From Clostridia bacterium (lineage in GTDB: Bacteria; Bacillota; Clostridia; Christensenellales; UBA1242): a stretch of 64,000 bases of DNA. The notes under the pieces are model-generated. The model saw only the letters and a program-made list of their open reading frames with translations. It had not been told where the DNA came from and made no database searches. A program made the translations under genes and the position numbers. The stretch lies in the NCBI GenBank assembly GCA_041663585.1, contig JBAYMN010000003.1:2438-66437 (forward strand), in the 5' to 3' direction. Below are positions 4,177 through 63,846 of the stretch, piece by piece. Each line of letters begins with the position of its first letter. The first letter of the stretch is position 1.

Positions 4177-4233
4177 GTGAACGCTGTGTGGTTAATTTCA
4201 TTTATTAGTGTTTTTACTTCTGTTTCCAAACTT

Positions 4234-4285
4234 CTTAAAATCCCTCGAGGGCAACTTCATGCCGGTTCGAGTCCGGCCCTCGCCA
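4234..4285 (+). pseudogene. 3' half of tRNA-Leu(TAA), attR-like fragment
   Basis: Anticodon loop CTTAAAA, 3' anticodon stem TCCCT, variable arm GAGG-GCAA-CTTC, T-arm GCCGG-TTCGAGT-CCGGC, acceptor 3' strand CCTCGCC plus A. Upstream DNA has no matching acceptor 5' strand or D-arm. Confidence 0.85.
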
Positions 4286-4314
4286 TGTAAAATTAATTTA
4301 CAACTAATTTTACA
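4286..4314. terminator. Hairpin after the tRNA fragment, also convergent with the P-type ATPase gene
   Basis: TGTAAAATTA-9nt-TAATTTTACA inverted repeat. Confidence 0.5.
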
Positions 4315-4347
4315 CACTTTTATAACTAATTTAATAATAAACTTTGT

Positions 4348-6915
4348 TTATTTCTTATTAAACACGCTCACAATGCCCGTATAAACAGGATAAGATGCTT
4401 GGACTAATACAATTACAAATAATGTGTTTTGAAGACTTAACGAAACATATTCAAAGAATGTAGATGGTACAAATATTAGTAGCATTGCACTTAATAATAA
4501 CATCGCACAATACAAAATGCTTCTAAACAAATCAAATGGTTTACATAATTTTAATAAAATTAATAATCCAGTAAAAGTAACCGAAAGTGATGCCATAGTT
4601 TCAAACTGCCCGCCTACTCCAATAAACAAGTCAAACACATAGCACGCAACTACATTAAGTGTCAAAATTAACGCACCAGGAAATGATTTAACTAGTAAAT
4701 TAGACAAGAACTTTCCTTTAATTCTTTCGGTGTTAGCCTGCATAGCAAGGAAGAATGAAGGAATACCTATAACAATAGATTCTAGCATTAATATTTGATT
4801 GGTATTAAACGGGTATTCCTTAGCAAATATTAGGCAAAGCACAGAAATTAAAATTGTAAATATTGTTTTCATTAAAAACAGCGAACTGCTTTTTTGTATA
4901 TTGTTAACTACTCGCCTTCCTTCTGCTACTACGCTTGGCATACTAGCAAAACTGCTGTCAAGTAATACTAAATTGCTTATATTTCGTGTTGCCTCGCTAC
5001 CGCTTGCCATTGCAATAGAACAATCTGCCTCTTTAAGGGCCAAAATATCATTTACACCATCGCCAGTCATAGCAACTTTATGTCCTTTGCTTTTTAGTGC
5101 TTTTATTAAAATATATTTTTGTTCGGGCGAAACTCTTCCAAACACTGTATATTTATCTGCCGCTGCAATAACTTCTTGTTCATTTAGCCCGTATAAACTT
5201 ATAAAATGTTCGGCTCCGGCAACGCCTACGCGTTTGCTTACTTCACTAACGGTTATAGGATTATCACCTGAAATTATTTTAATTTTTACATCATTATTTC
5301 TAAACCATTTTATAGTTTCGGTTGCATCTTCTCTAATGTGGTCTTCAATTACAATTATTGCAATAGGCTTGCGTTTTGTTGGTAAAGCATCTGCCGAAAT
5401 TGTACCTTCACATTTAACAAGTAAAAGTGTTCTAAACCCCTTAGAAGTATACTGTTTAATTAATTGTTCAAGTGAGCCATCTTTTGCTTTATAAACAAAC
5501 TCCGGAGCACCAAAAGCATATGTTTGCCCATTGCTAAATGTTACAGCGCTTAATTTACGACTACTGCTAAATGGCAAGACTGTTTTTGCGGTTAATTCGC
5601 GACTCACTCCAAAATAATTAAGCATTGCAACCGAAGTTTGATTATTGTCATCTAAGGCGGCTAACATTGAACCCATGATTTCGCCTACTGTATTAGGTAA
5701 ACTATGTTCCAACTGTAAAACTACATTAACTTTCATTGTCCCATCAGTTATTGTTCCAGTTTTATCTAAACAAAGCATATCGGCACGAGCAAGCATTTCT
5801 ATGCTGTATAAATCCTGAACGAGCGTACGCTTTTTTGCAAGTTTTACAACACCAACAGCAAGAGTTAAACTTGTTAACAAAAACATTCCAGCTGGAATCA
5901 TACCAATTACCGAACCAGCAGTTTTTTTGACTGTTTCGGGCAAATTTTCTAATACAGAATAATTATTGTTGAACATTAATATTGCAAGTGGAATAATTAT
6001 AACCGCAATCAATTTTATTACTAATCTTAAACTGCCAAGAAGTTCACTTTTGGGCTTTTTATATTGTTTTGCTTGCGCGGCAAGAATTGAAGAATAGTTA
6101 AAATCGCCAACTTTGTCAACTTGGGCAACGCATTTTCCACTAACTACAAAACTTCCACTTAGTAATGTATCGCCTTTCTTTTTCTTTATAGCAACGCTTT
6201 CACCCGTAAGTAGACTTTCGTTAACTTCTAGTTCGCCTTCAAGTATTATACTATCGGCGCAAATCTGTTTACCAGAAACATAACTAACAACATCATCTAG
6301 CACAATCTCTTTAATAGGAAGTGTAACAAATTTGCCATTTCTTAGCACTTCGGCGGTAGGTGCGGTTATTAGTGAAATTTTCTCTATTGTAACTTTTGCT
6401 TTAATTTCTTGAATAATTCCTATTGCCATATTAGCGATAATGGTAATCATAAATACTAAATTAGTAAATGCCCCTACCCCAATCAAAGCAGCAGAAACCA
6501 AAAAGCATAACAAATTGAAAAAAGTAAAAATATTACTAAAAAATATATTGCGGTATGTCTTTATATTTTTATTTTCAATAGTATTAACATAACCGCTAAT
6601 TTTTCGCTCTTCAACTTGTTCATTTGTTAAACCAAGTTTTGCAGTAACACTATATCTAACTGCATCTTCAATTCTTAAATTTTTAGGTTTTTTATACTTT
6701 ACTACAATAGGCTTACCGTTTTTATCGGTTAGTTTTTTATCTTTATTTTCTGTGGTTATAGTTGTTTCATTACTAACGTTAGTAATTTCTGCGGGTAAAA
6801 CCTCATTAACTATATTATTTTTTTCACTGCGTGATTTTTTAATTAAGGTCGTACTTTCACTAGATAAGGTATTGATAATTTCAGTTTTATTTTGTGCAGA
6901 TACATTTTTAGCCAT
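4348..6915 (-). CDS. Cation-transporting P-type ATPase (HAD-IC, CtpE-like)
   Basis: TGES, DKTGT phosphorylation motif, GDN, TGDGVND; membrane motif IPAGM. Confidence 0.92.
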   Translation of the reverse strand: MAKNVSAQNKTEIINTLSSESTTLIKKSRSEKNNIVNEVLPAEITNVSNETTITTENKDKKLTDKNGKPIVVKYKKPKNLRIEDAVRYSVTAKLGLTNEQVEERKISGYVNTIENKNIKTYRNIFFSNIFTFFNLLCFLVSAALIGVGAFTNLVFMITIIANMAIGIIQEIKAKVTIEKISLITAPTAEVLRNGKFVTLPIKEIVLDDVVSYVSGKQICADSIILEGELEVNESLLTGESVAIKKKKGDTLLSGSFVVSGKCVAQVDKVGDFNYSSILAAQAKQYKKPKSELLGSLRLVIKLIAVIIIPLAILMFNNNYSVLENLPETVKKTAGSVIGMIPAGMFLLTSLTLAVGVVKLAKKRTLVQDLYSIEMLARADMLCLDKTGTITDGTMKVNVVLQLEHSLPNTVGEIMGSMLAALDDNNQTSVAMLNYFGVSRELTAKTVLPFSSSRKLSAVTFSNGQTYAFGAPEFVYKAKDGSLEQLIKQYTSKGFRTLLLVKCEGTISADALPTKRKPIAIIVIEDHIREDATETIKWFRNNDVKIKIISGDNPITVSEVSKRVGVAGAEHFISLYGLNEQEVIAAADKYTVFGRVSPEQKYILIKALKSKGHKVAMTGDGVNDILALKEADCSIAMASGSEATRNISNLVLLDSSFASMPSVVAEGRRVVNNIQKSSSLFLMKTIFTILISVLCLIFAKEYPFNTNQILMLESIVIGIPSFFLAMQANTERIKGKFLSNLLVKSFPGALILTLNVVACYVFDLFIGVGGQFETMASLSVTFTGLLILLKLCKPFDLFRSILYCAMLLLSAMLLIFVPSTFFEYVSLSLQNTLFVIVLVQASYPVYTGIVSVFNKK

Positions 6916-7018
6916 TTTTTATATATTCCTTTGATTTATTTAATATTTTAATTATTATAGTGTCTTATTGTAACATAAAAAATAAATTTTCTCAATCAAA
7001 CAATTAGATTTAAATAAA

Positions 7019-7044
7019 AATACCGCTAAATTTTAAGCGGTATT
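7019..7044 (-). terminator. Intrinsic terminator of the ECF sigma / anti-sigma transcript
   Basis: AATACCGCT-8nt-AGCGGTATT followed by a T-run on the minus strand. Confidence 0.75.
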
Positions 7045-7065
7045 AATGATTTATAATAGGTTTTC

Positions 7066-8151
7066 TTATTGCCCGTTTCGCTCCTTATTATATTCATAAG
7101 AATTATGACCATTAGTTCTTACAGTATATTTATACCTATAATTACAATAAACCTCATCATATTCTGCTTCAATCTCAATATTTCCAATTTCATTATCGGC
7201 ACCATTATTAATAGAATACGAAATTTTAATGCAAGATTTCTCGTTTACTGTTTCGCTCTTAATAGTATAGTCATATGTTGAACCTTCTGAATTTTGTATT
7301 TTTAATTTTGTAATTAATTTATTATTTTCAGTGTGTAACGAGATTTCACTAGATGTATAAAGTTCAGATGCAACATAAACTTTGTAAGCAAATTTTTGTT
7401 CTTCATTTTCTACTTTATAAGTTACAGTAACATAATTATCTATATCAAGTGGCGAACTATATATTGTAAAGGTAATTTTTTGCTCTTCTAATATATTTTC
7501 TTGTTTGCCGTTAAAAGGATACTCTATATCATTTAAAATAGCAATTCCGCTTAATTCAAGTACTTCTTCATTGATAATATTATAATAAATTGTGTACAAT
7601 TTTTCCGCATTAATCATATCATTAGCCGAAAATACAATTTTATAACTATATTCTAGCCTATCTGATATTAAGTTTTCATAATTAATTGTGCTTTTATCGC
7701 CCATAAAATCTTCTAAAACATTTATATGGCTATTTAAATCATCTAAACCAGCATCTATAAGTATATTGTCATCATTATTATTGCCATTTCCACTTCCTTT
7801 CCCACTTAAATTCAACTCGTATAAATCCATATTTATATCTAACATTTTAGCAGCGGAAAGTGTAGAAAAAGTATAAACTTGTTCACTTGTTTCAAATCCT
7901 ACTTCTAAATTGGTAGTACTCGGTTTAACCAAAGTGTAAATTAATAAACTTGCACTAATTACTAGTAGTATAGCAAGCGAAAATTTGAAAATAAGTGGCA
8001 AACTAAATTTTAATTTTATAGGTTTTTTAACTATTGCTTTTTCTTTATTTTCAATAATATTAATATTATTTAAGTCAATACGACTAGAAATGTCGGGGGT
8101 ATTATCAATAATGTAATCTTTGCATAAATTTTTAAATTTATTCTTATTCAT
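7066..8151 (-). CDS. Putative anti-sigma factor: short cytoplasmic N-terminus, one TM helix, about 280 aa extracellular domain
   Basis: Overlaps the ECF sigma stop codon; TM segment FKFSLAILLVISASLLIYTLV. The extracellular part aligns along its length with the lipoprotein at 8749-9777. Confidence 0.75.
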   Translation of the reverse strand: MNKNKFKNLCKDYIIDNTPDISSRIDLNNINIIENKEKAIVKKPIKLKFSLPLIFKFSLAILLVISASLLIYTLVKPSTTNLEVGFETSEQVYTFSTLSAAKMLDINMDLYELNLSGKGSGNGNNNDDNILIDAGLDDLNSHINVLEDFMGDKSTINYENLISDRLEYSYKIVFSANDMINAEKLYTIYYNIINEEVLELSGIAILNDIEYPFNGKQENILEEQKITFTIYSSPLDIDNYVTVTYKVENEEQKFAYKVYVASELYTSSEISLHTENNKLITKLKIQNSEGSTYDYTIKSETVNEKSCIKISYSINNGADNEIGNIEIEAEYDEVYCNYRYKYTVRTNGHNSYEYNKERNGQ

Positions 8152-58929: not shown

Positions 58930-58939
58930 TTACACAAAT

Positions 58940-59273
58940 CAGAATAGTCTATAAGCCGAGTTCTGTATTAAACGACCATCTATCTAGACCTAATATTTCT
59001 AATAGGTTCCAGCGATTCTTTGAAAGCACGGCGGGCAGCCTTAACGCTTTCATTCGATCTTGCATCAAGTGGGGTTTACATAATCACCAAGTTACCATGG
59101 TGTTGGTGAGCTCTTACCTCGCCTTTCCATCCTTACATATTGCTATGCGGTATATCTCTGTTGCACTTTCCTTGGAGTCGCCTCCACCGGTAGTTAGCCG
59201 GCACCCTGCCCTATGATGCTCGGACTTTCCTCATTATATATTACTATATACTGCGGTCGTCTGGCTATCTGAC
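58940..59273 (-). ncRNA. rnpB: RNase P RNA, bacterial type A
   Basis: Conserved GAGGAAAGTCCG, GTGCAACAGA, GGTAAGAGCTCACC, AAACCCCAC...GCAAG and ACAGAACTCGGCTTA segments. Confidence 0.96.
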
Positions 59274-59279
59274 TTGTAG

Positions 59280-59308
59280 ATTATAACATTGCCAAATAAC
59301 TTTGTCAA
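59280..59308 (-). promoter_or_regulatory. Consensus sigmaA promoter of rnpB
   Basis: TTGACA-17nt-TATAAT. Confidence 0.9.
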
Positions 59309-59315
59309 TATTTTT

Positions 59316-59566
59316 ATTCCGCTTGCCTAACGGGCAAGCGGAATTTTTTGTTCCGCCGTCGCTACCGCTAGGCAGAAATCGGCACCGCACAAAAACAATC
59401 TATGCAAGTCTTAGGCTTTGCCTGACTTGCTTATTTTGAGTGATAACCTATGAAGGAAGGGATTAGCGGAATATAATTCCGCGGTTAAAAGGGAAACGCA
59501 CGAGCCCAGCGGTTAGCAAATTTTAATTTTCGTGTCCGCTACTTATCGGCTCGTGGTTTCCCTTTT
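59316..59566. repeat. GC-rich multi-hairpin element, including REP-like copy 2 at 59317-59339
   Basis: Four inverted repeats: 59316-59344, 59404-59430, 59466-59482, 59487-59566. Confidence 0.65.
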
Positions 59567-60370: not shown

Positions 60371-61096
60371 TTACTTTTTAAATACAAATATATATTCATG
60401 AGCTAACAGTAAAAAATTGTATTTTTCACTATTAGTTTTCCAAAATCCGGTTGCTTTGCAGTTATGCTGCTCTTTTATAATTATTTCCTTTATTTTAAAT
60501 CCAGCCGAAATAAATTTTTGCATGGTTTCAAATCCAAGAGGATAAACCATACCATGACTTCTTGTATCACCCATAACAATTGCACAAAACTTACCATCTT
60601 TTAAAACTCTGTAACTTTCTTTCGCTACATCTTCAATTTTATTTAAGAATTCTTTTGTTTTAAGATGTGATAAATCTCCATCTATATTTTCGCTATATTT
60701 TATAATGTTTGCATATGGCGGATGCGTACATACAAGATCAATTGACTCATCATTAAGTTTATATAAATCACAAGCATTACCAACAAATGTTTGTATTTTT
60801 GGACTATTTATTGAATCAAAAATTAATTTTGAGTTTGTATTGTCAATAGCAACTGGGTTTATATCTATTCCAATGGCATTTCTATTATTTAATTTGCATT
60901 CAATTAAAGTAGTACCCCCACCAACAAACTGGTCTAGTACTGTGTCATTCTCTTTTGAGTATCTTAATATTAAATTTTTTGCAACAAACGGAGAAAAATT
61001 ACCACGATATTTTGCATCATGTGTCGCCCATTTTCCGCGTATTGGGAAGCTCCAAATAGTATTTGTTTCTAATTCAAAATTGCTTTTATCTTCCAT
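60371..61096 (-). CDS. Amino (m6A/m4C) DNA methyltransferase, second MTase of the DpnII-type cassette
   Basis: Motif I DQFVGGGTT, motif IV HPPY, C-terminal HEYIFVF. Confidence 0.85.
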   Translation of the reverse strand: MEDKSNFELETNTIWSFPIRGKWATHDAKYRGNFSPFVAKNLILRYSKENDTVLDQFVGGGTTLIECKLNNRNAIGIDINPVAIDNTNSKLIFDSINSPKIQTFVGNACDLYKLNDESIDLVCTHPPYANIIKYSENIDGDLSHLKTKEFLNKIEDVAKESYRVLKDGKFCAIVMGDTRSHGMVYPLGFETMQKFISAGFKIKEIIIKEQHNCKATGFWKTNSEKYNFLLLAHEYIFVFKK

Positions 61097-61105
61097 TAAA
61101 CACCA

Positions 61106-61963
61106 TTACACCAATAAGTCTTTTAATCTACCAATTTCTAAATCATTAATATTATATAAATTTTCTAGGATATCAAAGGTTTCTTCTAAATTATTTTTTG
61201 CATCTGCCCAACCGAGACCATCGGTTATCCAAATAAATTTAAAACCTTTTATATTTTTTGATTCTAGTGCAAGGGTTTTGTAACTTCTTGCAGTTTCATT
61301 AAGTTTTGAACCACCGCTTGAATAAAAATTTGTTTCAATTGCATATATTATATTTTTTGTTTTAACAACATAATCAAATCTTTTTGTTACTTTACCACTA
61401 TTAGAAAGGGCTGATAAATCAATATTCCATTTGCTTTCAATGTCTTTTAAATACATTTCTTTAAAATAATTTTTATTTTTTTCAAAGCCAACTTTTTCAA
61501 TATATCCCTCAACAACATTTTCCATCAAGTGTCCACCGCGATTTTTTCTTCCATTTGAGCCTAATCCAACTTCAATGCCCATAGCATAATCAACAAGATT
61601 GTTAATAAGATGATTTGAAATTAAATCAAACAAGCCAGTTTTTACCATAAACTGCTTTAAAAGTGAAATGTCATTTATTGTTGTAAAGTTGTATTTAAAT
61701 TTTTCGCCGTTATCGATTACTTTTATTTCTTTTTCCCTTACCGCAATAAGTAGTGGTAAACATTTTTTAATTTCAGGATATTTAGTAAATAGTTTATCAA
61801 AGTCATTTTCAATATTTTTTGAACCAATAAGAGAATTAAGTAAATTTAGTTCTACTTTAATTAAATCAATATTTGCATATACCTTTCCGAAGTCTACATA
61901 ATAACCATATGTAGAAATGCTGTCTGTAAATTTACTAAACCAATTTTTAAAATCTCTTTTCAT
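61106..61963 (-). CDS. DpnII/MboI-family type II restriction endonuclease (probably GATC)
   Basis: YYVDFGKVY...VELNLLNSLIG, GVEVG-like GIEVGLGSNGRKNRGG, KRFD, IETNFYSSGGSKLNETARSY, WITDG. Confidence 0.9.
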   Translation of the reverse strand: MKRDFKNWFSKFTDSISTYGYYVDFGKVYANIDLIKVELNLLNSLIGSKNIENDFDKLFTKYPEIKKCLPLLIAVREKEIKVIDNGEKFKYNFTTINDISLLKQFMVKTGLFDLISNHLINNLVDYAMGIEVGLGSNGRKNRGGHLMENVVEGYIEKVGFEKNKNYFKEMYLKDIESKWNIDLSALSNSGKVTKRFDYVVKTKNIIYAIETNFYSSGGSKLNETARSYKTLALESKNIKGFKFIWITDGLGWADAKNNLEETFDILENLYNINDLEIGRLKDLLV

Positions 61964-61972
61964 AAATTACTC

Positions 61973-62803
61973 CTATTTTATTTCCACAAAAATTTGATCT
62001 TTTGCATAATACCAAACTGAAGTTTTTGAGACAAATAAATTATCTTTCGTTATTAATTCCAAATCTTTATATAATTGTGTAACCCCACCTAAATATGTCC
62101 TATCCGCATTAATTGAAAGTGTTAAGGTTTTATTATTACTAAATGCAATAGTTAATGTTTTTTGTTCATTTGGAATTGCTTTTACAATTTCTGTAGGTAT
62201 TCTAAGAATTCTAGCACGGATATCATTTTGTGAAATTTTTCTACTTATTACTATTTCAAATTTCTTATCTACTTCAGTGTTTTTATAAATAGTATCTTTT
62301 TTATCTAATGTTAACTTTTCAAGAGTTTTTTCATCAAATACAGGTTTTAGATTAAAACCTAAGCCCAGTGATATGCACTGTTGAATTAAGGCTTTACCAT
62401 CTATTAGAATTATTTGTCGGGATGCATCTTTTTCTGCAAAATTTCTTGCGTCCTTTGGAAATCTACCAGTAGTAATGAATATACCCTTGTAGTTTAAAGG
62501 CATAATTCCTCTTAATTCTCGCAAATCTTTAATAGACACGGTTGTATTTGGCTTATAACATTTAGCTTGTACATAGTATTTTATTTCATCTAAATTAGAT
62601 AGCCCATCAATTCCGTTTTTAGAACAAGTTAAATCAATTCCCCCGTCTCTTGATTTTTGTGTAACAAAAACTTCTTCCAATCCGATTTTTTCTAAAAATA
62701 TTTTTAGGAATTCTTCAAACTCATATCCATTATTAAATGAATTATATAAAGATTCAACACTTTGATTTAATTCGGCATCATTTAATTCAATTATATTACT
62801 CAT
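61973..62803 (-). CDS. Mrr-like nuclease domain fused to a C-terminal B3/EcoRII-N-like domain
   Basis: GYEFEEF...DGGID...VQAK (D-QxK) Mrr catalytic core; C-terminus RKISQNDIRARILRIP...TYLGGVTQLYKDLEL; ATGA overlap with the dam gene. Confidence 0.75.
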   Translation of the reverse strand: MSNIIELNDAELNQSVESLYNSFNNGYEFEEFLKIFLEKIGLEEVFVTQKSRDGGIDLTCSKNGIDGLSNLDEIKYYVQAKCYKPNTTVSIKDLRELRGIMPLNYKGIFITTGRFPKDARNFAEKDASRQIILIDGKALIQQCISLGLGFNLKPVFDEKTLEKLTLDKKDTIYKNTEVDKKFEIVISRKISQNDIRARILRIPTEIVKAIPNEQKTLTIAFSNNKTLTLSINADRTYLGGVTQLYKDLELITKDNLFVSKTSVWYYAKDQIFVEIK

Positions 62804-63711
62804 TTATTTTCTCCTTTGTAATTTGTGATTACAATTTCAGTAACATTGCCTCTTTTTTCGGCTTGACAATTTATCATACGCTTAGCGGATATTCTTTGAA
62901 GGTTAAAATCCTTATACAATTCATCAAAAAAGTTATCATTTGAATTAATATTTTTCGGATCCGAATTACTAAGCATAAGTAAAGAACCTGTTTTATTGAC
63001 TTTTTTATAAAAATCTGCAAGTTTAATTTGTTCTTCATCATCAAACCCATTTTTTGAATAATTCACAAATGAGCCGAATTCCGCTAATGGTCTATATGGT
63101 GGGTCAAAATAAACAAAAGTATCTTTAATTAAATATTTTTCACACTCAGTATAATCGCCATATATGATATCTACATTTTGCAATAATTTTCCTACTAATG
63201 TTATATTTTTGGAGTCACAAATCATTGGACTTTTATATCTTCCGTGCGGAACATTAAACTCGCCTTTGCTATTAACTCTGTATAGCCCATTATAACAAGT
63301 TTTATTTAAAAAAATAAAATCTGCGGCTTTTTTAAAATCATATTTACCATTTAAATGAATTTCATTATACTCTTTGCGGGCATTGTAATATAATTCTGCT
63401 CTCATTTTTTCATCTAATATTAAATACTGATTTTGTAATTCGCTTAACTTCCTAATAACTTGGGCTGAATCAGCTTTAATACATCTATAACAATTAATTA
63501 ATTCTTTATTTATATCAATAATTACTGCTTTTTTTATGTTGTATTTTTGAATCACATCAAAAAACACTGCACCGCCACCAATAAACGGTTCAATATAAAT
63601 TTCAATATTTCCTTGTTTTAATTGTAATGGGTACAAACCTTCAAACTTGTTTAAAAGTTGTCCTTTACCGCCTGCCCATTTCAAAAATGGTTTAGCAACA
63701 TTTTCACACAT
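62800..63711 (-). CDS. Dam-family DNA adenine methyltransferase (DpnM-like)
   Basis: KPFLKWAGGK, EPFIGGGAV, LNKTCYNGLYRVN, YFDPPY, MLSNS. Confidence 0.95.
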   Translation of the reverse strand: MCENVAKPFLKWAGGKGQLLNKFEGLYPLQLKQGNIEIYIEPFIGGGAVFFDVIQKYNIKKAVIIDINKELINCYRCIKADSAQVIRKLSELQNQYLILDEKMRAELYYNARKEYNEIHLNGKYDFKKAADFIFLNKTCYNGLYRVNSKGEFNVPHGRYKSPMICDSKNITLVGKLLQNVDIIYGDYTECEKYLIKDTFVYFDPPYRPLAEFGSFVNYSKNGFDDEEQIKLADFYKKVNKTGSLLMLSNSDPKNINSNDNFFDELYKDFNLQRISAKRMINCQAEKRGNVTEIVITNYKGENK

Positions 63712-63808
63712 TAAACATTCTCCAAGTTGTAAGTTGTAAAAATAATATTATATAAATATATTATCATATTAAACAAAAAAAGTATATTAGATTTTTCCTT
63801 ACAACTAT

Positions 63809-63846
63809 AAAAATCCACTCCTAACAAATTAGAGAGTGGATTTTTT
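63809..63846. terminator. Terminator separating the upstream gene from the R-M cassette
   Basis: AAAATCCACTC...GAGTGGATTTT inverted repeat. Confidence 0.7.

Follow-up and report, generated by a model that had tools for sequence, protein, structure and literature searches.

What is a second nuclease gene doing inside a DpnII-type restriction-modification (R-M) operon, and which DNA would its product cut? The question was raised by a stretch of 64,000 nucleotides (nt) from a Clostridia bacterium (assembly GCA_041663585.1, contig JBAYMN010000003.1, positions 2,438 to 66,437 of the forward strand), which is called the window below. On its minus strand, at 61973..62803, the list of open reading frames (ORFs) and the sequence define a gene for a protein of 276 amino acids (aa), here named Mrr-B3 (MrrB3 in gene orders). 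The protein joins an Mrr-type nuclease domain to a C-terminal domain with a modelled B3-like fold, has intact catalytic residues, carries a conserved putative DNA-reading arm and is recurrently embedded in GATC cassettes. The explanation that we favour, at a little less than an even chance, is that Mrr-B3 would be an autonomous second restriction nuclease that rides on the GATC cassette, is sensitive to methylation and is held off host DNA by the Dam enzyme of the cassette.

Operon and domain architecture

Four minus-strand genes were packed tightly into the final 3.4 kb of the window. Operon gene 1 (62800..63711, 303 aa) encodes a Dam-family N6-adenine DNA methyltransferase (MTase) of the D12 class (PF02086 2e-59 in Pfam, TIGR00571 7e-85 in NCBIfam). 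It is followed by the Mrr-B3 gene, by a gene for a DpnII-family Type IIP endonuclease (61106..61963, 285 aa; PF04556 1e-102, PADLOC REase_II 1.5e-96) and by a gene for a second MTase, MT2 (60371..61096, 241 aa; PF01555 2.8e-28 in two permuted stretches, PADLOC MTase_II 1e-106). The target of DpnII-family endonucleases is unmethylated GATC. The dam stop and the Mrr-B3 start share a 4-nt ATGA overlap at 62803-62800, with AAAGGAG upstream, while the Mrr-B3/DpnII and DpnII/MT2 junctions were gaps of 9 nt each that contained GGAG or GGTG resembling ribosome-binding sites. The first-pass annotation, which was made from the letters of the window, had given this gene order, these positions and the ATGA coupling of the first two genes, and all of them were recovered.

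The nuclease domain of Mrr-B3 (residues 25-141; 62381..62731, minus strand) was assigned to the Mrr_cat PD-(D/E)xK fold (PF04471, 5.4e-25), and Pfam coverage of the protein was confined to these residues; a weak secondary match to NA-iREase1 (1.3e-7) lay far below the Mrr_cat score. No PF04556 match was returned by Pfam, so Mrr-B3 is not a DpnII homologue, the DpnII homologue being the neighbouring gene at 61106-61963. The catalytic residues were E30, D53/D57 and Q79-A80-K81. By sequence, the nearest solved structures were the catalytic domains of MspJI (4f0p) and AspBHI (4oc8), and the GGxD and QAK columns matched those of 4f0p. The same two enzymes were found by Foldseek for the N-domain of the full-length model (MspJI 6.8e-8, AspBHI 3e-6). 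In PADLOC the nuclease domain was matched by PDC-S02 and by methyl-directed restriction endonuclease (REase) models, and no model spanned the whole protein. The D...(Q/E)xK motif of Mrr enzymes is accompanied by a different arrangement, because their winged-helix Mrr_N lies ahead of the nuclease, whereas the reader of Mrr-B3 is C-terminal and B3-like. Pfam gave no Mrr_N or other winged-helix match, and the nuclease begins at about residue 25 after a single N-terminal helix, in agreement with the Mrr core without a winged helix that had been described from the sequence.

Behind the nuclease lies a variable linker of about 30 residues (residues 150-183; 62255..62356, minus strand), which is of low complexity and poorly conserved, with a mean column identity of 0.31 and with length and sequence that vary across the family. 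The full-length AlphaFold model, built on an alignment of 28 homologues, had a predicted local distance difference test (pLDDT) score of 81; its two folded domains were joined by a linker of low confidence, in which pLDDT fell below 50 at residues 167-180. Two independently folded domains on a flexible linker are the layout of modular nucleases of the Type IIS/IIE kind.

The last ~93 residues were matched to no family by Pfam, NCBIfam, phmmer against the PDB or a PDB profile search, apart from spurious matches to engineered proteins. When residues 178-276 were modelled alone with AlphaFold2 from 18 divergent loci, the pLDDT reached 94.3. The only significant Foldseek neighbours of this model in the PDB were seven plant B3 chains (probability 1.00, template modelling score 0.52-0.66), namely 1yel, VAL1 (6j9a, 6fas and 5yzy), NGA1 (5os9, two chains) and TEM1 (7et6), and the next match had an E-value of 0.48. 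The C-domain of the full-length model likewise matched the Arabidopsis B3 protein At1g16640 (1yel, 1.3e-4). The bacterial B3-like domains EcoRII-N and BfiI-C were absent from the Foldseek PDB matches. Residues 184-276 (61976..62254, minus strand) are accordingly described, by their modelled fold, as a B3-like DNA-binding pseudobarrel, the fold that marks B3-like restriction enzymes, and the B3-like nature first proposed for the last ~90 aa is confirmed by this structure comparison at the level of the fold.

In EcoRII-N and BfiI-C the bases are contacted by two elements, the N-arm and the C-arm (PMC3973309). From their positions in the secondary structure, SQNDIRARILRIP (residues 191-203) and NADRTYLGG (residues 232-240), both within 61976..62254 on the minus strand, are the putative counterparts of the N-arm and the C-arm in Mrr-B3. 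The places where the arms are expected, a helix plus strand at 192-201 and a hairpin at 226-239, both hold the invariant polar residues of the family.

Conservation and genomic company of the family

A total of 498 homologues were matched at E <=1e-3. Nearly all of them were 270-295 aa long and had the same layout, and the family has no name. Two members, P0188 (403 aa) and P0158 (315 aa), carried an extra C-terminal domain of ~130-150 residues beyond the B3 domain, for which Pfam gave no match. Conservation was evaluated in an alignment of 41 divergent members with ~30-100% identity. E30, D53, D57, Q79, A80 and K81 were kept in at least 90% of them, and the nuclease should therefore be active, as judged from sequence conservation. 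The putative N-arm (191-203) had a mean identity of 0.76, compared with 0.35 for the rest of the B3 domain, where R235, Y237 and G240 were also conserved, and it was the best-conserved stretch of the entire protein among members down to ~30% identity. Such a uniform putative reading surface suggests that one DNA target may be common to the whole family.

The genomic company of Mrr-B3 was determined in a species-level set of 39 loci from GTDB genomes. In 31 of these loci the gene shared a cassette with Dam, with the partners of Dam or with both, one more locus was a decayed remnant, and the remaining 7 copies were solitary. This context, with 32/39 loci in Dam operons, differs from that of Mrr-type enzymes, which act on modified DNA only and are not paired with an MTase. 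Among 80 metagenome loci, a redundant sample with many near-identical gut contigs, the large majority again lay in a GATC cassette, mostly of the order MT2-Dam-betaMT-MrrB3-DpnII found in gut Lachnospiraceae, and ~6 were solitary. Divergent members at 37-39% identity were placed directly after Dam, and the siting in GATC cassettes held down to 37-45% identity, so the link to the DpnII operon that had been noticed in the window is real and conserved. In 399 genomes drawn evenly from the class, DpnII was present in 38, a D12 MTase in 128 and full-length Mrr-B3 in 4. All four copies adjoined Dam and three adjoined DpnII; the association of Mrr-B3 was significant with DpnII (p = 0.003) and with Dam (p = 0.01) by Fisher test. 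In this sample ~8% of the DpnII cassettes contained Mrr-B3.

The arrangement of the cassette varied considerably. In addition to Dam-MrrB3-DpnII-MT2 in the window and to the Lachnospiraceae order, whose extra gene encodes a beta-class, CcrM/DpnA-like MTase, the order Dam-DpnII-MrrB3-MT2 was found in Fusobacterium vincentii SB055 (L105) and in a termite-gut contig (L180), Dam-[DUF6996/6997/7226 REase_II]-MT2-MrrB3 in Paramaledivibacter, and Dam-MrrB3-[PDDEXK_11 ORF]-MT2 in an uncultured Christensenella (L012). One locus (L028) combined three MTases with Mrr-B3 as the sole nuclease. The gene thus occurred in at least five gene orders, its endonuclease partners came from two unrelated families, and its MTase neighbours, where present, always belonged to the GATC set. 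The link of Mrr-B3 is to GATC methyltransferases and not to one gene order or partner protein. In a tree of 58 DpnII sequences, those linked to Mrr-B3 were scattered among the unlinked ones; seven changes were needed, at least two of which were forced by well-supported branches. According to this tree, DpnII cassettes appear to have gained or lost Mrr-B3 several times.

Some of these loci had features of their own. In Paramaledivibacter caminithermalis DSM 15212 (L035 2495-3790; also L042 and G353) a 431-aa DUF6996-DUF6997-DUF7226 protein occupied the usual DpnII slot between Dam and MT2. It was matched by a PADLOC Type II REase model (1e-131) and probably represents an unrelated family of GATC endonucleases; its three Pfam entries are still filed as "unknown function". 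In the L012 metagenome-assembled genome (MAG) the DpnII slot between Mrr-B3 and MT2 was taken by a 197-aa ORF (5774-6367) with only a short PDDEXK_11 match, possibly a further small nuclease, possibly a remnant. Decay was seen in Anaerovibrio lipolyticus An883 (L036, 5028-6612), where Mrr-B3 was N-truncated and had an internal stop, DpnII lacked its first ~54 codons and the MTases looked intact. Broken copies of Mrr-B3 were also present in L038, L041 and L042. Loss of nucleases with retention of MTases is a pattern of decay typical of R-M systems, and it fits a role of Mrr-B3 as a restriction nuclease.

The plasmid collection yielded one full-length match, on a 2.1-Mb circular replicon of Fusobacterium vincentii SB055 (NZ_CP084075.1) that is filed as a "plasmid" in PLSDB and carries its cassette at 4177-7543. 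GATC methylation is known to control transformation in another Fusobacterium strain (preprint 10.1101/2024.07.17.603877). The only match in the phage collection was L106 (MT838632.1, "Bacteriophage sp.", unverified, 5 kb) with the order betaMT-MrrB3-DpnII; since this is the Lachnospiraceae cassette, the record probably holds bacterial DNA under a wrong phage label.

In the window, the four-gene cassette (60371-63711) had a G+C content of 27%, compared with 29-38% in nearby coding sequence, and it was not found in any of the seven genomes of the same family (each ~0.8-1.1 Mb) in the class-wide sample. The host genome is ~1.03 Mb and 96.5% complete. Both its low G+C content and its absence from the family members sampled suggest that the cassette, which adjoins a sigK-like gene, was acquired recently by horizontal transfer. 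Upstream of dam lies an AT-rich operon leader (63712..63840, minus strand), as read from the sequence. It is preceded by a hairpin followed by a T-run (tccactc...gagtgga ttttt, ~63840-63809) with a loop of 13 nt, which is probably the terminator of the gene upstream of the operon and which was omitted by the terminator scan because of its loop length. A consensus scan for the operon promoter found promoter-like sites no more often than in shuffled sequence, the DNA being AT-rich. Farther along, a class A RNase P RNA gene was detected at 58936-59271 on the minus strand (RF00010, 259 bits), which accounts for the G+C-rich patch at 59000-59500 of the composition profile.

Possible modes of action

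The proposed action of Mrr-B3 as a second nuclease of the GATC cassette would proceed as follows. The C-terminal pseudobarrel would bind the major groove of double-stranded DNA by means of the putative N-arm (NDIRARI.R.P) and C-arm (R.Y.GG). Its target would be GATC itself or a somewhat longer site that includes GATC, bound only when the adenine is unmethylated. Cutting would be done by the Mrr/MspJI-type PD-QxK domain, tethered by the flexible linker, probably next to the site or a short way from it and after the pairing of two molecules, in a manner resembling Type IIS/IIE enzymes. Host DNA would be shielded by Dam and MT2 of the operon, so that Mrr-B3 would need no MTase of its own, and translational coupling to dam would allow Mrr-B3 to be made only where Dam is made. 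In this way, unmethylated GATC DNA would receive a second, mechanistically different strike beside that of DpnII.

The recognition site, the methylation sensitivity and the cleavage mode are properties that we infer. Methylation-sensitive reading of GATC is proposed because the link to GATC MTases outlasts changes in gene order and in endonuclease, because Mrr-B3 has no MTase of its own and because B3-like domains provide precedents. The characterised B3-like restriction domains, EcoRII-N, BfiI-C, NgoAVII, UbaLAI and LlaJI.R1, all read unmodified sequence (PMC3973309, PMC5766183, PMC4267654, PMC7680126). Sites that contain GATC, for example the AlwI site GGATC, are protected by methylation of the Dam type (PMC4081073), and the sharing of an MTase would therefore be feasible for a longer site as well.

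Several observations weigh against this explanation. The seven solitary copies among the 39 loci were intact and had no MTase nearby. A D12 MTase was present elsewhere in only three of these seven genomes, which is not above the background of 32%, and genome-wide searches of two of them, G001 and G003, found no D12 or N6_N4 MTase. The genomes with solitary copies are MAGs in which mis-binning is possible, and of the MTase classes searched (D12, N6_N4, N6_Mtase and C5) others with unassigned specificities were present; the census is thus suggestive in its weight against dependence on Dam. Moreover, the same B3 subtype was found, with no Dam gene adjoining, on a McrB-like GTPase accompanied by McrC and on a GmrSD enzyme; the relatives of the nuclease, Mrr, MspJI, AspBHI and the PADLOC methyl-directed REase models, are modification-dependent; and the tie between the B3 domain and GATC is itself one that we infer. 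In G001, L107 3006-5135 encoded a 709-aa protein in which an EcoRI-type adenine MTase domain (PF13651) is fused to a C5 MTase (PF00145); the ORF that follows, of 290 aa and without a family match, is possibly its endonuclease.

Part of this evidence would be accounted for if Mrr-B3 were a Type IV nuclease that resides in the cassette, whose B3 domain senses hypermodified phage DNA for cutting by the Mrr domain, while GATC containing N6-methyladenine (m6A) and ordinary 5-methylcytosine (m5C) are ignored and no MTase partner is needed. We regard this as unlikely, although it is the main rival of the favoured explanation. It agrees with a catalytic domain nearest to Mrr, MspJI and AspBHI and matched by methyl-directed REase models, with intact solitary copies that lack a neighbouring MTase and in some cases a detectable Dam in the genome, and with the McrB/McrC and GmrSD scaffolds that share the B3 subtype away from Dam; a Type II and a Type IV enzyme together would also give complementary cover. 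However, reading of a modified base is not known for any B3-like domain, and McrB motors with B3 domains, such as LlaJI, target specific sites in unmodified DNA. A free rider would be expected beside many kinds of R-M system, yet the MTase neighbours were always the GATC set in several orders. Broad dependence on m5C or m6A is excluded by the co-residence of Dam and by the C5 MTases that were detected in 8/12 carrier genomes, and the Type IV reading is therefore narrowed to hypermodified DNA: any modification-dependent Mrr-B3 would have to tolerate m6A in GATC, and ordinary m5C in 8 of the 12 carriers. The first-pass annotation had suggested that Mrr-B3 may back up DpnII against phages with modified or GATC-depleted DNA; the former role is possible within these bounds, but if Mrr-B3 reads GATC, GATC-depleted phages would escape it too.

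The other explanations were judged less probable. Mrr-B3 might be an accessory of the GATC endonuclease, forming a complex with it or processing its products, for example by degrading religatable GATC ends, and harmless alone. In favour of this role, most loci place its gene directly beside that of the endonuclease, no MTase is dedicated to it and solitary copies are viable. Nevertheless, it stands before or after the endonuclease gene and beside two unrelated endonuclease families, which argues against a specific complex; the three MTases of L028 are accompanied by no nuclease other than Mrr-B3; B3 domains bind the major groove of duplex DNA and not 4-nt overhangs; and with Mrr-B3 in ~8% of DpnII cassettes, DpnII can evidently do without it. 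An accessory role is thus quite improbable. Still less can be said for a Type II enzyme with a different site of its own that is guarded by MT2, a second-site idea already raised in the first-pass annotation. It is suggested by an operon that pairs two MTases with two nucleases and by the 5-6 bp asymmetric sites that B3 domains usually read. In 27 sampled DpnII cassettes without Mrr-B3, however, ~20 had the composition Dam, DpnII and MT2, with an MT2 55-67% identical to that of the window, and another 5 had the order Dam-betaMT-DpnII. MT2 therefore belongs to DpnII and marks no second specificity, so that MT2 was rejected as the cognate partner of Mrr-B3; the window-type operon contains no additional MTase to accompany it. 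Some divergent members also lie directly after Dam and before a DpnII gene or a partial ORF, and a pair of MTases, DpnM and DpnA, is present in classical DpnII-type systems anyway. MT2 itself is not an enzyme of the DpnA type (beta class), because its FxGxG motif lies ahead of THPPY, which is the permuted order. Hardly any probability was given to a catalytically dead DNA-binding protein, such as a regulator of the operon. For it speak the weak match to NA-iREase1, a family of inactive REases, and the lack of a C-protein in the window operon (a helix-turn-helix gene is present in L001); against it, the catalytic residues kept in the family are aligned with the catalytic motif of MspJI, and the Mrr_cat score is far above that for the inactive family.

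The B3 subtype was also found outside the Mrr-B3 layout. An 810-aa McrB-like GTPase in L064 (181-2613) carried the "NDIRARI" subtype at its N-terminus and preceded McrC; a partial ORF upstream of this fusion was ruled out as a Dam fragment, since no similarity was found. In L065 (6001-8037) a 678-aa GmrSD enzyme carried this subtype at its C-terminus; the defence island around it also held a ThsB-like TIR gene and Type I genes. A wider proposal, which we consider rather doubtful, is that this subtype could be a portable reader of the GATC methylation state (unmethylated or G6mATC), with Mrr-B3 as an MTase-less mobile "second blade" that borrows the Dam of its cassette and that DpnII-type and other GATC systems would have acquired and lost time and again, and with the same reader fitted to McrBC and GmrSD scaffolds.

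Relation to known systems and significance

Several known restriction enzymes resemble Mrr-B3 in part. EcoRII and UbaLAI (Type IIE, CCWGG) also have a B3-like pseudobarrel and a PD-(D/E)xK nuclease in one chain; their reading is sequence-specific and methylation-sensitive, and a cognate MTase guards the host (PMC2770665, PMC5766183). Their B3-like domain, however, is N-terminal and serves as an effector beside a sequence-specific catalytic domain (EcoRII-C, MvaI-like), whereas in Mrr-B3 the domain order is reversed and the Mrr_cat nuclease has no known sequence specificity. The B3-like domains of EcoRII and UbaLAI shared no sequence similarity with that of Mrr-B3 and were absent from its Foldseek matches. 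In domain order, Mrr-B3 is like BfiI and the R-proteins of NgoAVII and CglI, in which an N-terminal non-specific nuclease, a linker and a C-terminal B3-like domain follow one another and which cut away from their site (PMC3973309, PMC4267654). The nuclease of these enzymes is of the phospholipase-D fold and not PD-(D/E)xK, they have dedicated MTases of their own, and NgoAVII and CglI need an ATPase partner. Mrr, MspJI and AspBHI (Type IV and IIM) have a catalytic domain of the same family as Mrr-B3, with a D...QxK motif as well, but they are antagonists of methylation that read modified bases through N-terminal winged-helix or SRA-like domains, while Mrr-B3 has a C-terminal B3-like reader and is sited in an MTase operon.

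LlaJI.R1 is similar in that an N-terminal B3 domain provides its McrB-like motor with site-specific binding of unmodified DNA and that its operon has two MTases (PMC7680126, PMC1459862). It differs as a GTP-driven two-subunit machine, Mrr-B3 having no motor; an McrB-like protein with the same B3 subtype as Mrr-B3, in the form NDVRARI, does exist (P0191). SsuDAT1I, a GATC system of Streptococcus suis, reportedly has two MTases and two REases, both REases being of the DpnII/MboI type, according to Sekizaki et al. in 2001, and so sets a precedent for two endonuclease genes within one GATC cassette. In the cassette of the window, by comparison, the second nuclease is of unrelated fold. The literature search found no paper on an enzyme combining Mrr_cat with a B3 domain, or on such an extra nuclease in DpnII operons, and the architecture can be called unusual and uncharacterised, as had been supposed at the outset.

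If Mrr-B3 reads GATC and cuts outside its site, it would provide a new kind of reagent, a Type IIS-like cutter directed to GATC. Its C-terminal domain would, if the proposal is true, be the first bacterial B3-like domain tied to the discrimination of adenine methylation. Cultured carriers are available in Roseburia hominis An869, Paramaledivibacter caminithermalis DSM 15212 and Fusobacterium vincentii SB055, the last with a complete genome, and many gut and oral bacteria are among the carriers of the family. In Firmicutes and Fusobacteria of the gut and the mouth, few barriers to DNA transfer are as common as GATC systems of the DpnII/MboI type. If about one in twelve of these systems holds a second nuclease, removal of DpnII might leave a barrier to unmethylated DNA in place, whereas Dam-methylated donor DNA would still pass if Dam methylation blocks Mrr-B3, and escape from such systems would be harder for phages than has been assumed.

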